From Octopus vulgaris (lineage: Eukaryota), in the NCBI GenBank assembly GCA_951406725.2, contig OX597827.1, forward strand, positions 73,532,001 to 73,596,000: a DNA stretch of 64,000 bases, in the 5' to 3' direction. Position 1 is the first letter of the stretch. The number at the start of each line of letters is the position of its first letter. Below the pieces are notes generated by a model. The model made no database searches and was not told where the DNA came from. It worked only from the letters and a program-made list of their open reading frames with translations. Positions 20,878 through 64,000 of the stretch are shown piece by piece. The translations under genes were made by a program, and so were the position numbers.

Positions 20878-21177
20878 ACAATGATAAATCTGAGAGCGAG
20901 TTATAAACAGTAGCGGTAACACATCGTGACGCATATTTGCCATTTGAATATGACTAACACCTAAGGGTGGATGCTACTGTAGTTTGTAGCCCCAGGAAGA
21001 TATCTCCTCCAGCTGGCTATAGACACACTATCTGTGTCCTCTCAGTATTTGTGAAGGGAGTCATCCTCCCCGTCTTCAACTCATGATACACACGGACCCG
21101 AGTTTCAAGGTGTTTACCTTTCATCAGCGTGTGACAATCATGGTTGTCGACGAGAAGTCAGCTCCCTTCACAAATAC
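20878..21177 (-). mobile_element. Hammerhead-bearing repeat (Penelope pLTR / retrozyme-like)
   Basis: Positions 20878-21027 are near-identical (inverted) to 63713-63864. It contains a canonical hammerhead and a short internal inverted repeat (gtatttgtgaagggag / ctcccttcacaaatac). Confidence 0.7.
21089..21133 (-). ncRNA. Canonical minimal type I hammerhead ribozyme
   Basis: - strand reads CACACG-CTGATGA-AAGGT(aaac)ACCTT-GAAAC-TCGG-GT-C-CGTGTG: 6 bp stem I, intact core, 5 bp stem II and a GUC cleavage triplet. Confidence 0.85.
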
Positions 21178-34438: not shown

Positions 34439-34920
34439 GTGTGTGTGTACCAAATCCACCAACAAGGCTTTGGTCAGCCCGACGCTATAATAGAAGACAT
34501 ATGCACAACGTGACATGCAGTGGGATTGAAACCGGATCCATATAGTTGGAAAGCAAGCTTCTTACCAAACTATCATTCATTAATAACTCTATCACCACTG
34601 AACACCATTTGTGATATAGGGAGACGACGTATGCAAAAGATCCTGAAGGAAGTCGTTTGTCTTCTCGTGATTCTCTATAATTATCTATATTTGATATTTC
34701 ATCGAATTTTATTTTACGCGAATACTTTCATCTCATTCTCTGTGGTTACATTCCATTGATCCACGTTGAAATACAATGAGGAATCAAGTATATACTCATC
34801 TCTATCTAGTGTCTGTAATGCTAAAAGAAATAACAATATCTAGCATATTAAGTCATCTATACTATGTCATAAAACTCTTATAATAGCAATTTATGGCTAA
34901 CATGGTTTTTATTATTTCAG

Positions 34921-46271: not shown

Positions 46272-46889
46272 TTTATTTTCAGTACAAGGGCACTTTTAGC
46301 AGATGAGGGTTTTGTGGCTAAGGCATTCAGGTTTTGTAAGTGGGTTAAATCCTTGGCTTATGTTACGTAAGCCTATCGCAGTGTGACTTGATGGCACACG
46401 AATCATTTCCACTGATGAAATAAACATTGTAGCTCAAGGATAAAATTTTGAGATTAGGAGATAACAGAATAAACTGTAAATAAACGGTTGTAGGTAACGA
46501 GAACTGCTGCTGTATCTTGCATAAGAAACATCAGGAATCCTCAGACATTGGTTTAGAGGTCCAGGTTCATGATTGCTGACGGCTGCAAGAATAGAGAGGG
46601 GAGAGAGAGCGAGTAAGTCAGTTCGAGAAAAGCGTACAAGCTATGCCCGAAAGAACTCCAGACATAAGTATCTCATTCTTTTTCTATATCAAATACTACA
46701 TTATACATAAATTTCTCCTTTTCTTGAAACAGTAAAATATGATGTGAAGTAAATGCTGTTTGTAAGAGTTCAAGAGAGTCTCTATAAATACACACACACA
46801 TACACTCACACACACATACACGTATTCGTTGATTACTTTATATATTATGGCCGTAATGATGAGCAAGAAAAGAAAAATTAAATATATAG

Positions 46890-47060
46890 GGAAGGCGCAG
46901 ATCTGGCCCTGTGGTGGGAAGCTTGTTTCCCAAACCCATGGTTGTGGATTCAGTCACACTGCGTGGCATCTTAGACAAATGTCTTGTAATATAACCTAGG
47001 GCCAACCGAAGCTTTGTGAGTGGATCGGTAGGAGGAAACTGAAAGAAAGCCCATCGTATA
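46890..47060 (+). mobile_element. tRNA-derived SINE (decayed)
   Basis: ggcgcag...tggccctgtggtgggaagcttg...ggattcagtcacactgcgtggcatc...ggaaactgaaagaaagcccatcgtata. Related pieces lie at ~4975-5045 and ~34450-34570 (-). Confidence 0.6.
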
Positions 47061-48358: not shown

Positions 48359-48939
48359 AAAAGAAGAAGACAAGGAAAATACTTTAACTCATCTTTAATT
48401 ATAAGTTAAACATGTTTCCATACTGACTCCATTTGCAACACCAGTTTACGCGAGAATTCTAAAACAAAATTTATGTTATATATGCTGTTTGGGGCATCGG
48501 AGAGGCTTATAGACTTTAATTTAGTATCTGGATATCTCTGACGTTATTTCTTCATTGTTACGTTTAATCCAAGTATTATCCTAATACTCTATATTTTTTA
48601 AAAAGGAAACTACTTAAATTGTCTTATTTCTTTTGACAAGCTAATTGCAGACGTTGTACATTTATTGTAACGAGCTAATTGTAGACTGTTCCTTACAATT
48701 CTTGAAGAGTTCCATAATATTAGTTGTCCTATTTAGAGATTCCATATTATACCCCATTTAATTGAGGGGGTCTTGTCTTCCGAGAACTTGCTGACATCAC
48801 TAGTGCTGAATCGTCAGATATTGGTTTAGAGTTCTAGTTCCATGATTGCTGACGGCTGCAGGAATGGAGAGTGATGGGAGAGAGAAAAATAAAAGAGACA
48901 CAGAGAGATAGAGAGAGAAAGTGTAAGTCAGCCCAGAAA

Positions 48940-49607
48940 CGGTCCCAGATGTCAAGAAGGTAATTTTCTATACTTCATTCCAAAATTATTAAATTATGTT
49001 TTATATTTCATTTAATGTCTCTACCTGTTCAATCTTGTTTATGAGAACATATTACGTCAAGCGAAACAATGTTTAATGTTTGTTTACAGGCATGCAAAAT
49101 CTTAATTATATTTCTTAAGTAGAAACGTATTATAGACATACATTTTATTATATTCAGTAAATGATATCTAATATAATTTGTTTATACCAATATTTTCAGA
49201 ATGTAAAGGAGATAAATTTGGTGTAAATTGTAAAGATATATGTCACTGTGTTGACAACAAAAAGTGCGACAGACGAAATGGGACATGTCCAGATGGGTGT
49301 GCTGCTGGATATGACGGTGATAATTGTCAACAAGGTATAATTTAAGTCTACATTATATTTTTAAAAATATGTCTCAGCCTGTGAATTCGTCTCTTTCTAA
49401 ATATTTCCTGGTATTTTAATAATGTGCGAGTGGAAATGAGGACTACACGGGTTTATAACAATTATGCTTTTCAAGCATTCATTCACAAAAATCTTCGTAA
49501 AGAAATCAGGAAATATTTGACTCGTAATAACTATGTATATATCTGTAAGTGTGCGCGTGCGTGTCTGTGTGTTACATAATCATTCGGAGACATACACACA
49601 CACACAC

Positions 49608-49678
<71 letters not shown>

Positions 49679-50379
49679 ATTCTTACTTAATGTACGTGGA
49701 TATAATGCACAAAGTCAAAAAACTGCGGCGTTCGTCACGTGATCACATCTCACATTCATGTGTTGTGATAAAAATCAGACAAAACGTTAAATTGTTTAAA
49801 TCTAGATTTTTTTTTTCACCGTCATTTGTTGCAGGTATTCAGTAGCCATGGAATATGTAAACAAATTTAGTTCTACTGAAACAGGAAGACAGTAATTAAT
49901 AAATCACTAGTTTTCCTGTGTCCGTAGAGGTACACGCATTAATGTATTGATACGATAACACAAGTAACGTGCAAAACACGTAATATAGAAACAATCTGAA
50001 ACTATGACCTGGCAACAATGGACTTATTAAAAATGTCAGGAACAGAATAAATGCCACTATTTCCATGCTTACAACTTATCACAGGTGTATAGTGGTAAAG
50101 GGTGGTAGTAATGTAACTACTATATTCGTGATAAATACTTCGGTAACATTTCATTGCCCAAAAGTTAGAAACGTTCACGAGTTGACGTAATGAATATTTT
50201 AGAAAAATATGTTAATTACTTTAAATATTTTAGAAATAGATGTTAATACTGCCTTCAAATGAGGATTGCCGGGCATGTTTTATCATGCACAGCATGAAAT
50301 CAATTGATGTTGGAATATGTATTAAAACTACCTTCAATTTTGCTCCTGAAGGCAGGTCTACTTTTTAAAATGTTCATTA
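48940..50379 (+). repeat. Displaced duplicate of 52809-54233 (last 20 bp of exon A, intron, exon B and downstream intron)
   Basis: Collinear and highly similar to 52809-54233. Flanked by a ~70 bp direct repeat (48870-48939 and 50381-50454). Confidence 0.88.
49200..49334 (+). CDS. Host gene exon: EGF-like module, type B
   Basis: ttttcag|...|gtataa, 135 bp. CKGDKFGVNCKDICHCVDNKKCDRRNGTCPDGCAAGYDGDNCQQ. Confidence 0.82.
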
Positions 50380-50834
50380 CAGTGAGCGGAGAGGGGGAAA
50401 TAAAAGAGAGACAGAGGGATAGATAGAGAGAGAAAGTGTAAGTCAGCCCAGAAAAGCTTACAAGCAATGAACCAAGATATTCCAGACAGAAGTATCTCGC
50501 TCTTTTCTATATCAAATACTACATTATGCAAAAATCTTTTCTTTTCTTAAAACTGTAAAATAAGATGAGAAATAGATGCTGTTTGTAAGAGTTCAAGAGA
50601 CTATCTACAATCACACACACACACACAGAAAGGTAAATGTATTCATTGATTACTTTATCTCTTATTGTTTTCATGATGATTAACACGAGTACATCTAAAT
50701 ATATGCAGAAAGTTCAGATGTGGCTTGCATTGCAACAGGTTGTACTGGGTTATATCTTACCAGTAGCACTCGAAAGTGACCTGACATAGCATACATACAT
50801 ACATACATACACACACACACATACGCACACACAG

Positions 50835-50879
<45 letters not shown>

Positions 50880-50894
50880 CATGCATATATATTG

Positions 50895-50951
<57 letters not shown>

Positions 50952-50961
<10 letters not shown>

Positions 50962-51560
50962 TATTAGAGACAAAACCACTATTTTGCAAAACAAACAAGG
51001 AAAGACTTAATCAATACATAAAATTTTAATAAATAGTCAAAAAAACCGCCACTACAATCGTTTCTTGTCTTGATCGACAATCTTCAGGTGGACTTCCAAT
51101 TACAAGTCAGTTTCAAATCAGCATGAAATCAATTGATGTTGGAATATGTATTAAAACTACCTTCAATTTTGCTCCTGAAGGCAGGTCTACTTTTTAAAAT
51201 GTTCATTACAGTGAGCGGAGAGGGGGAAATAAAAGAGAGACAGAGGGATAGATAGAGAGAGAAAGTGTAAGTCAGCCCAGAAAAGCTTACAAGCAATGAA
51301 CCAAGATATTATTTGAAACTGACTTGTAATTGGAAGTCCACCTGAAGATTGTCCATCAAGACAAGAAACGATTGTAGTGGCGGTTTTTTTGACTATTTAT
51401 TAAAATTTTATGTATTGATTAAGTCTTTCCTTGTTTGTTTTGCAAAATAGTGGTTTTGTCTCTAATAATATTTTATAATATTTTACTATAAAATTGGATT
51501 TAATCCTAAATCTGATTTTTTCCCCTGTAAATTTGGATTTATTCCCTAATATTTATTATT
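50952..51560. mobile_element. Hammerhead-bearing foldback (167 bp inverted arms) with a 192 bp captured host loop, in (TA)n
   Basis: Arms are 50952-51118 and 51311-51477. The loop 51119-51310 equals 50290-50481. The right arm continues to ~51560. Confidence 0.88.
51338..51380 (+). ncRNA. Minimal type I hammerhead ribozyme (inverted twin at 51049-51091 on -)
   Basis: CCAC-CTGAAGA-TTGTC(catcaa)GACAA-GAAAC-GATT-GT-A-GTGG: intact core, GUA triplet and near-palindromic stem III (ACGATTGT). Confidence 0.8.
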
Positions 51561-51949
51561 ATATATATATATATATATACATGCACACATACACACACAC
51601 ACACACACACATGTATATTTATATATATATAATGGACTAAACCGTCGTTAGACAATGTCTTAGCAAACAGCGACGCAGATGATTTGTTTGCAGTGATCAA
51701 ATGAAATCGACATTATTTGCACTGGGGCAACGGGTGCCCCATGCCAGGTGACGAAATGATCGCAGAGCAACGTGGAATGAAGTGTTTTGCTCTAGAAGAC
51801 AACGCAACGCCACGTCTGGAGATCGAACGCATGACCTCGCAATCCTTAACCACTGAGCCATGCGTGTTCACACACACATACACACACAGTCACAGACACA
51901 CAAACACACACACACATATAGATATCTACATATGCATACATATATATAC

Positions 51950-52699: not shown

Positions 52700-52828
52700 A
52701 ATGTTCCAGTGGTAGCTTTGGTGATAGTTGCAAAGAGCATTGTCATTGTTCCCTACCATGTAACCACGTAAATGGATCATGTCCAGGTGATTGTGATGCA
52801 GGATACAGCGGATCCAGCTGTCAAGAAG
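52700..52828 (+). CDS. Host gene exon: EGF-like module, type A
   Basis: ttccag|...|gtaatt, 129 bp. [43 protein letters not shown]. Confidence 0.88.
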
Positions 52829-53062
52829 GTAATTTTCTATACTTTATTCCAAAATTATTAAATTAGTTTTTATATTTCATTTAATGTCTCTACCTGTTCA
52901 ATCTTGTTTATGATAACATATTACGTTAAGCGAAACAAATGTTTGTTTACAGGCATACGATATCTTAATTATATTTCTGAAGTAGAAAAGTATTATAGAC
53001 ATACCTTTTATTATATTCAGTAAATGATATCTAATATAATTTGTTTATACCAATATTTTCAG

Positions 53063-53197
53063 AATGTGAAGGAGATAAATTTGGTGTAAATTGTAAATAT
53101 ATATGTCACTGTGTTGACAACAAAACCTGCAACAGACGAAATGGGACATGTCCAGATGAGTGTGCTGCTGGATATGAAGGTGATAATTGTCAACAAG
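53063..53197 (+). CDS. Host gene exon: EGF-like module, type B
   Basis: ttttcag|...|gtataa, 135 bp. ECEGDKFGVNCKYICHCVDNKTCNRRNGTCPDECAAGYEGDNCQQ. Confidence 0.88.
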
Positions 53198-53486
53198 GTA
53201 TAATTTAAGTCTATATTATATTTTTAAAAATATGTCTCAACCTGTGGATTCGTTTCTTTCTAAATATATCCTGTTATGTTAATAACGTGCGAGTGGAAAT
53301 GAGGACTACACCGGTTTATAACAATTATGCTTTTCAAGCGTTCATTCACAAAAATCTTCGTAAAAAAATCAGGAAATATTTGACTCGTAATGACTATGTA
53401 TATATCTGTATGCGTGCGCGTGCGTGTCTGTGTGTTACATAATCATTCGGAGACACACACACATACACACACACACACACACACAC

Positions 53487-53536
<50 letters not shown>

Positions 53537-54544
53537 CTTACTTAATGTACGTGGATATAATGCACAAAGTCACAAAACTGCGGCGTTCGTCACGTGATGA
53601 CATCTCACATTCATGTGTTGTGATAAAAATCAGACGAAACGTTAAATTGTTTAAATCTAGATTTTTTTTTCAGCGTCATTTGTTGCAGGTATTCAGTAGC
53701 CATAGCATATTTAAACATATTTAGTTCTACTGAAACAGGAAAACAGTAATTAATAAATCACTAGTTTTCCTGTCTCCGTAGAGGTACACGCATTAATGTA
53801 TTGATATGATAACGCAAGAAATGTGCAAAACACGTAATATAGAAACAATCTGAAACTATGACCTGGCAACAATGGACTTATTAAAAATGTTAGGAACAGA
53901 ATAAATACCACTATTTCCATGCTTACAACTTATCACAGGTGTATAGTGATAAAGGGTGGTAGTAATGTAACTACTATATTCGTGATAAATACTTCGGTAA
54001 CATTTCATTGCCCAAAAGTTAGAAACGCTCACGAGTTGACGTAATGAATATTTTAGAAAAATATGTTAAATACTTTAAATATTTTAGAAATAGATGTTAA
54101 TACTGCCTTCAAATGAGGGTTGCCGGGCATGTTTTATCATGCACAGCATGAAATCAATTGATGTTGGAATATGTAATAAAACTACCTTCAATTTCCCTCC
54201 TGAAGGCAGGCCTATTTTTTAAAATGTTCATTAAATTGCTCGTGTGTGTATTTATCGCAGAATTGGTGGGTTTTCTTAAGCTTTCACTTTAATTTTTTGC
54301 AAGCGGTATTTTTACCCTTCTTTTTTCAAATATTATAACTGTTTATGTAGAAGTCTTGCTAGCCACCTCATTATTACTGTTTCTAACAGTGATAATACTT
54401 CACATATTTACTCATATATATATATATATATATATATCGAAATTTGCCATGATGAATCGGTTTCTGACTGAAGAATGAATGCTCTGAATGACAGTCTGTT
54501 TTCCGTGTTCGTCAATTCGTGAATTTCACGCTCTTTATATACAA

Positions 54545-63617: not shown

Positions 63618-63863
63618 CCTCTAGAATGGGAGAAAGCGCTAATGATCTAAGTGATATGATATATAAAAAGTAGCGGTAACACATCGTGACGCATATTTGC
63701 CATTTGAATATATGTGTCTATAGCCAGCTGGAGGAGGTATCTTCCTGGGGCTACAAACTACAGTAGCATCCACCCTTAGGGGTTAGCCATATTCAAATGG
63801 CAAATATGCGTCACGATGTGTTACCGCTACTGTTTATAACTCGCTCTGAGATTTATCATTGTT

Positions 63864-64000
63864 ACTCTTTTACTCTTTTACTCTTTTACTTGTTTCAGTC
63901 ATTTGACTGCGGCCATGCTGGAGCACCGCCTTTAATCGAGCAACTCGACCCCGGGACTTATTCTTTGTAAGCCCAGTATTTATTCTATCGGTCTGTTTTG
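63864..64000 (-). mobile_element. SINE 3' tail (truncated by window end)
   Basis: - strand ...ggcggtgctccagcatggccgcagtcaaatgactgaaacaagtaaaagagtaaaagag. Confidence 0.7.

Follow-up and report, generated by a model that had tools for sequence, protein, structure and literature searches.

A Penelope-like foldback insertion in Octopus vulgaris carries a copy of neighbouring DNA at its centre, as do a few other members of its family

The DNA analysed here, called the window throughout, is a stretch of 64,000 nucleotides of Octopus vulgaris (contig OX597827.1, positions 73,532,001 to 73,596,000, forward strand) from a genome of 2.8 Gb. Between positions 34500 and 61100 it holds tandem EGF-repeat units with exon pairs at about 35.0/35.4, 38.2/38.6, 49.3, 52.8/53.1 and 60.6/61.0 kb, and this gene cluster is duplicated again on C14 at 73.4, 73.8 and 74.5 Mb. 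The foldback studied here and the segment that matches its centre are both intronic in a plus-strand EGF-repeat gene with exons of 129-135 bp. The nearest complete upstream exon gives a weak Pfam match to EGF_STAB1-2 (E 0.022), which lies below the cut-off of that family. The features of the locus are the following:

49200..49334, plus strand: nearest complete upstream EGF exon, a Cys-rich frame between AG and GT
50290..50481, plus strand: template, 192 bp of host intron DNA with native flanks uninterrupted on either side, identical to 51119-51310
50849..50955, no strand: (TA)n target tract, left of the insertion
50952..51118, minus strand: tail-less arm, a 3' terminal-repeat copy with outward-facing 3' end; outer limit ± about 5 bp within the TA tract
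51049..51091, minus strand: left-arm type I hammerhead motif, mirroring that of the right arm
51119..51310, plus strand: patch, an exact direct copy of 50290-50481 in place of the usual 0-20-bp centre
51311..51477, plus strand: tailed arm, portion common to the left arm
51338..51380, plus strand: type I hammerhead motif of the right arm, predicted cut after 51376
51478..51560, plus strand: tail of the Penelope-like element (PLE), about 83 bp, on a single arm only, family-wide
51560..51579, no strand: (TA)n target tract, right of the insertion
52700..52828, plus strand: next EGF-like exon downstream, 129 bp

The insertion is a short non-coding terminal-repeat insertion that consists of two head-to-head copies. 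A preliminary description had reported inverted arms of 167 bp with one mismatch inside a (TA)n tract, and a centre identical to a segment 829 bp upstream. All of this holds: the mismatch lies at 51075, TA runs flank the foldback on both sides, and the 192 bp are an exact copy of 50290-50481. The distance of 829 bp is correct from start to start, while 470 bp separate the template end from the left arm. The arms extend as described, but 51478-51560, not mentioned before, is the one-sided tail of the family. Both arms end at the identical base, the usual centre is absent and the patch shows no microhomology at either of its two junctions. Neither a clean target-site duplication at the locus nor a clean empty site among the paralogs without the element, which are 75-92% identical, was found. 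Elsewhere in the family, unusually long target-site duplications of about 65-90 bp including TA runs were seen (L006:1400-1960, L154:3790-4520). Taken alone, the locus in the window is an intronic curiosity without signs of function.

The direction of copying can be read from the flanks. Upstream, the flank of the template aligns to a paralogous unit (48945-50379 versus 52814-54233), and downstream it aligns to 46601-46907. As the template passes without a break into paralogous sequence at either end, 50290-50481 is the original and the centre of the foldback is the copy. The template contains a junction that was said to be missing from a paralog, and indeed 54144-54233 matches only its first 90 bp, at 94%. 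Matches to the 3' half of the template were found only in the C14 gene cluster; a piece resembling this half lies at 48870-48940, where it has been joined onto the end of an EGF exon. The junction argument for a local template therefore holds, but as C14 has three copies of the locus, the template was either this site or their common ancestor.

Template, gap and foldback are present together at 73.58 Mb, 73.81 Mb (inverted) and 74.54 Mb of C14, and the surrounding duplications, at least 6-10 kb long, have private substitutions and different microsatellite lengths. Three assembled copies with private differences and the same junctions argue for one event and make a misassembly unlikely. At the 74.54-Mb copy the arms are identical to each other and the patch is 100% identical to the template; the event is therefore young, although older than the duplications. 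Could the foldback nevertheless be an assembly artefact, or the 192 bp an ordinary part of the element interior? One arm of the 73.81-Mb copy is degraded at its outer end, and no contig listed from five public short-read runs (of 24) bridges an arm-patch junction, although absence is not demonstrable from such contigs. They do contain the template in its native flanks (X2 covers 50176-50450, and X7 crosses the template end into the native flank). Against an ordinary interior, none of the unrelated loci that were fetched has the 192 bp next to its arms, and 115 of 146 head-to-head pairs have centres of at most 20 bp. Since the same phenomenon also occurs with other sequences at five independent loci, we regard an artefact or an ordinary interior as highly improbable.

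The arms are 3' terminal repeats of a PLE assigned to the Hydra clade. Their earlier reading as PLE terminal repeats is borne out by the parent family, which has a PLE open reading frame (ORF). This family comprises short foldbacks of about 400 bp as well as long copies, and its tail-less outer end has 874 exact matches in the genome. The long copy L036 (about 5.9 kb) shows the layout of endonuclease-bearing PLEs, namely terminal repeat, ORF and terminal repeat, followed by an inverted truncated copy and a one-sided tail. Such inverted, truncated and tailed copies are a regular feature of PLEs. In L036 the ORF is split over two frames, and the tail stretch is located about 50 bp upstream of the ORF start. 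This full-length Hydra-type copy (L036:2295-8193, C1:218.25 Mb) has an asparagine-rich stretch between reverse transcriptase (RT) and nuclease, as in Adineta PLEs. The long copies L032, L033, L034, L039 and L044 form almost perfect inverted repeats, whose arms measure 1-3 kb and are 94-99% alike; these would be strong hairpin formers if transcribed.

The ORF pieces of L036 include KWK, DKT, YRDD, CxCx5C, YIG, CxxC..E and CxH, without CCHH. For the single proteins, P0001 has YRDD, KWK and further PLE-type motifs, with RWR in three relatives, while P0002 and its relatives have VVY...YIG followed by R, H, E and N-type positions, which resembles GIY-YIG at the motif level, with a single cysteine between VVY and YIG. 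Searches of Pfam and of PDB sequences gave no match to RT or GIY-YIG, and a search of longer proteins found nothing. The predicted structure of P0003, a 44%-identical relative, retrieved telomerase reverse transcriptases (TERTs) at ranks 1-5 (E 6e-8 to 2e-7), at a low TM-score of about 0.3. Named relatives of the element protein come from Octopus bimaculoides only. The Hydra clade is characterised by RWK, DKT, a CxCX5C linker, CxxC and CxH around E/N, the lack of CCHH and (TA)n targets (Craig et al. 2021, PMC8557442). The motifs and (TA)n sites of our family match these traits, by which it is assigned to this clade; the Neptune clade was considered and dropped on the basis of the motifs. The RWK-like motif, the C-terminal GIY-YIG-type domain, the hammerhead in the terminal repeat and the inverted 5'-truncated copy with one-sided tail are likewise shared with that description. 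In contrast, the tail measures about 83 bp instead of the 30-40 bp quoted for PLEs, and the body of about 6 kb or more, including L036, departs from the tendency of the clade to single-ORF elements of <3 kb (PMC8557442). The asparagine-rich ORF stretch and the large short non-coding subfamily also differ from this description, which in the passages concerned makes no mention of locally copied centres.

Each arm had been described as carrying an intact minimal hammerhead. The sequence motifs are present: 51338-51380 has a helix I of 4 bp, CUGAAGA, a helix II of 5 bp, GAAA, a helix III of 2 bp and a self-complementary loop, and its predicted cut falls at an NUH site. However, the predicted active fold is not the one of lowest energy (-4.1 and -5.4 versus -5.9 and -6.5 kcal/mol for the best fold; z about 0), and an Rfam scan for hammerheads gave no match. 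Pair 10.1-11.1 is U-A, where G-C is usual. As the motif retains a short helix III, it belongs to the type with a small palindromic helix III and not to the minimal type that lacks this helix. The helix III segment pairs with itself (-5.8), as in the dimer-type motifs described in PMC4209133. The boxes are conserved across family copies and one diverged relative, and a 34-nt core pattern has 634 exact genomic matches. Moreover, the full-length L036 and one arm of L219 start at the predicted cut, which hints at activity. With the two motifs on opposite strands, one transcript would have a single sense motif, and this would be paired into a 167-bp hairpin.

A role of the ribozyme in capturing host DNA, as suggested before, is unsupported, since three of the six locally patched copies lack a hammerhead in both arms and two more have it in one arm only. 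The hammerhead is probably a mere passenger. The family resembles the animal non-LTR retrozymes (10.64898/2026.07.22.740005) and the elements with minimal hammerheads in PLEs (PMC4209133) in being non-coding, derived from PLE terminal repeats (pLTRs) and equipped with a type I hammerhead. Retrozymes, however, are head-to-tail tandems, whereas the octopus copies are head-to-head pairs; a short tandem was found at L109 alone, where three hammerhead-bearing units of 107-109 bp lie within a foldback as a retrozyme-like mini-array (L109:4739-5373). Dual hammerheads on opposite strands, 100-700 bp apart, were noted in Schistosoma in 2014 (10.64898/2026.07.22.740005, PMC4209133). The window contains a second hammerhead-like motif of a different sequence family at about 21087-21131 on the minus strand, and nearby 20876-21027 matches 63713-63864 in inverted orientation at 97%.

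How the two arms arise was addressed in a survey of 214 loci, a non-random sample made up of the top-scoring matches and first-listed places of five sequence searches, mostly from C1-C8. The stretches surveyed were 3-10 kb long, and one copy represents the three C14 duplicates. Head-to-head pairs were counted if both arms were at least 88% like the arm of the window locus (n = 148). One tailed and one tail-less arm were found in 143 of these pairs, and likewise in 111 of the 114 pairs from the portion of the sample not selected on the tail-less end. Among 124 short pairs, the tailed arm was shorter on its inner side by at least 15 bp in 28 and the tail-less arm in 24. Because either arm may be the shorter one, neither is simply the other's snap-back copy. 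Insertions with a single arm comprised 45 tail-less and 18 tailed ones (194 loci). In 44 of 48 pairs the two arms had all subfamily markers in common, and differences numbered 1.4 within a pair versus 3.1 between pairs. This greater likeness is compatible with a single RNA shared by both arms, but fold-back copying or gene conversion would account for it as well.

The PLE protein PAc (Anolis Poseidon; Frangieh et al. 2024) cuts and extends both strands in vitro, shows two RT starts that bound the tail, and does not need hammerhead cleavage for insertion (PMC11167929). Taken together with this work, our arm counts would favour two primings over a self-priming fold-back, probably on one RNA or on RNAs of one source. 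PAc belongs to another PLE clade, and the joining of cDNA ends was not studied there. The Penelope elements of Adineta vaga (Arkhipova et al. 2013, PMC3846280) resemble the octopus copies in having host sequence between pLTRs, head-to-head repeats and palindromic joints. Template jumps have been proposed for them, and self-priming is favoured in that study, whereas the octopus arm counts point to two primings. A further difference is that the host DNA in Adineta lies between direct pLTRs and was moved to a new site, while in octopus it occupies the inverted joint and in most cases is a copy of sequence next to the insertion.

Is the foreign centre of the window locus a single case? For the count of centres, L077 and L219 were excluded, since their apparent local patches proved to be chance neighbours of unrelated copies; this left 146 pairs, and the count rests on the fetched loci. 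The element library came from six long copies, whose own centres were separately and nearly fully covered by other loci. Besides the 115 short centres, 22 were longer element sequence and nine (about 6%) were foreign. Six of the latter are local, two come from other chromosomes and one is telomeric repeat. A comparison of the spacers with their own surroundings at the fetched loci, of the kind that the preliminary description had proposed, found the phenomenon again at five loci beyond the window. The idea of a nearby source stood for these six, but patches may also come from another chromosome or from telomeric repeat.

The six local templates lie 0.1-2.5 kb away and the patches measure 60-1,580 bp, four being direct and two inverted; five templates are on the tail-less side and one on the tailed side. 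A rule that the template is direct and on the tail-less side was true for the first four cases and was broken by L261 and L266. Next to the direct 192 bp of the window locus, L071 has a direct patch of 130 bp that is 100% identical to a template 236 bp away (the next best scored genome match reaches 84%). The direct patch of L067 spans about 1,580 bp (99.4%, 871 bp away) and is preceded by a 13-bp snap-back of the element's own end; its arms have about 17 bp in common. In L249 the direct patch of 120 bp is part of a neighbouring palindromic repeat (checked against the fetched loci), and in L261 the inverted patch of 73 bp belongs to a young repeat of which identical copies exist at distant sites. 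The inverted patch of L266 (about 60 bp, tailed side) is partly microsatellite, and its arms have about 27 bp in common. Junction microhomology of 2-6 bp was seen in four of the six local cases (L071 3/3, L067 3/0, L249 2/0, L266 6 at one junction) and was about 0 in L261. The L249 template is in turn a small palindromic element, built around (ATT)n(AT)n(AAT)n (L249:4706-4910) and perhaps a foldback of another family. At L071:4695-4840 the tailed arm has clustered differences and is 90% identical to a typical copy, compared with 97% for the other arm; either error-prone synthesis or assembly noise may account for this.

Of the remaining foreign centres, that of L154 is derived from C5 (98%) and that of L252 from C13 (99%), where 332 bp (L252:1490-1865) match a unique site and the first 47 bp are mirrored on the other arm; instead of a patch, L252 may represent a chimeric RNA or 5' transduction. 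At L140:4016-4146 the centre consists of about 120 bp of (CCCTAA)n, an interstitial telomere that arose at the joint.

Without the window locus, the rate of local patches is 5 in 145; adding 16 further pairs known as close coordinates gives 6 in 162. In a subset made up of 98 of the first 100 tail-less ends, four were local, 20 of these ends being surveyed over 4 kb only; this extrapolates roughly to about 35 (14-88) local duplications for the whole family. As a control, random non-simple pieces of 120 nt were drawn from comparable loci, and 30 of 2,691 had a near-exact copy no more than 3 kb away; compared with this, five local ones among the eight other foreign centres correspond to P of about 1e-8. 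Copying of exons, which had been considered possible in principle, was not seen, nor does any captured piece resemble an exon. In three templates the longest frames without a stop have 59, 41 and 176 aa, the last being low-complexity or repeat-like.

In our judgement, the centre was probably patched at insertion, by copying of exposed flanking DNA before the cDNA ends were joined. The enzyme would cut both strands, and each free 3' end would prime reverse transcription. One priming would take place at the end of the tail and the other about 80 nt inside, which would yield tailed and tail-less arms with their 3' ends outward. Mostly, the two cDNA ends would be joined directly with 0-20 bp between them. 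Occasionally, however, a cDNA 3' end might anneal to a single strand bared by resection of the flank, where annealing on its own strand would lead to an inverted copy and annealing on the strand of the other end to a direct copy. After extension by 60-1,580 nt the end would be released and then joined. The polymerase could be a host repair enzyme or the RT itself, and the hammerhead would be unnecessary. The window locus would later have been duplicated twice with its gene cluster. Resection and annealing are the simplest single account that covers all six local cases. The earlier proposal of a switch of RT or repair machinery from the element to host DNA and back was right about local templating, but the layout is better explained as a patch between separately primed ends.

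Polymerase theta leaves short and microhomologous patches, and its templated insertions are generally <25 bp (PMC12426944). What we observed is 192 bp with zero microhomology in the window and 60-1,580 bp with 0-6 bp elsewhere. This exceeds the typical length of polymerase-theta inserts and implies a more processive host polymerase or the RT. Otherwise, templated sequence insertions at repaired breaks (TSIs, class 2 TSIPs) and theta inserts resemble our cases in their flank-derived, distant or telomeric patches and short microhomology (PMC5110952, PMC12426944); TSIs come from distant sites (PMC5110952), whereas the octopus patches are mostly local. Locally templated DNA is also known at L1 and R2 insertion junctions (PMC11702581, PMC11371274). 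Those cases concern non-LTR elements in cultured cells and mostly a single cDNA end, while the octopus patches are found in fixed genomic PLE copies at a joint of cDNA with cDNA and reach up to 1.6 kb.

A different timing would place the patch after the insertion, when a cruciform or central re-cut of the palindrome is filled with a nearby copy by host repair or replication slippage. The blunt junctions of the window locus, and its arms that end at the same base with the usual centre lost, also fit a later cut at the palindrome centre, and in L071 the patch matches its template at 100%, compared with just 91% between the arms over 67 bp. On the other hand, L067 and L266 are nearly without a palindrome, and the overlap of about 17 bp between the L067 arms is too little for a fragile one. 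Unequal inner truncation is equally common in patch-free pairs (52/124), and the 74.54-Mb copy on C14, with both identities at 100%, shows no age gap. A later origin of the patch thus appears rather unlikely to us.

We also consider it unlikely that the telomerase-like RT of the PLE is itself the agent, which on reaching the end of its RNA would move over to flanking DNA or nascent RNA and copy up to 1.6 kb of it. In its RNA form, for which our expectation is similarly low, the RT would jump from its own RNA end to a nascent host transcript, or any RNA, and copy it before the ends are joined. The orientation of the window patch equals a bottom-strand cDNA of plus-strand host pre-mRNA, and its junctions are blunt. 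Two patches from other chromosomes and one of (CCCTAA)n would fit as well, since RNA-templated and telomeric patches are known at engineered breaks (PMC5110952), and the first 47 foreign bp of L252 stand on both arms as if already in the copied RNA. The local patches, however, occur in both orientations and on both sides within 2.5 kb, which exposed DNA explains without assuming transcription. If the RT-jump reading were true, each double-primed insertion would have a few-percent chance to duplicate neighbouring sequence, and the family would have made about 35 (14-88) duplications able to hold a whole EGF exon of 129-135 bp. PLEs inserting into intronic (TA)n would in that case provide an unrecognised route by which exons are duplicated locally in tandem gene clusters.

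Returning to the patching from exposed flanking DNA that we prefer, we found no report of flank-copied centres in PLE foldbacks in the open-access literature. The flank-copied joints are a known form of retroelement junction repair in a new setting, and they are real and repeatable. How inverted PLE insertions are formed has been described as open (PMC8557442, PMC11167929, PMC3846280). The one-tailed pairs, their independent truncation and a joint that captures copies of the flank argue for two primings followed by end joining. The hundreds of young copies in the octopus genome are a testable record of how PLE insertions are completed, in which the joint is a natural read-out of the polymerase that finishes the insertion. 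For the genome itself, the family is a repeatable, small source of local duplications of 60-1,580 bp.
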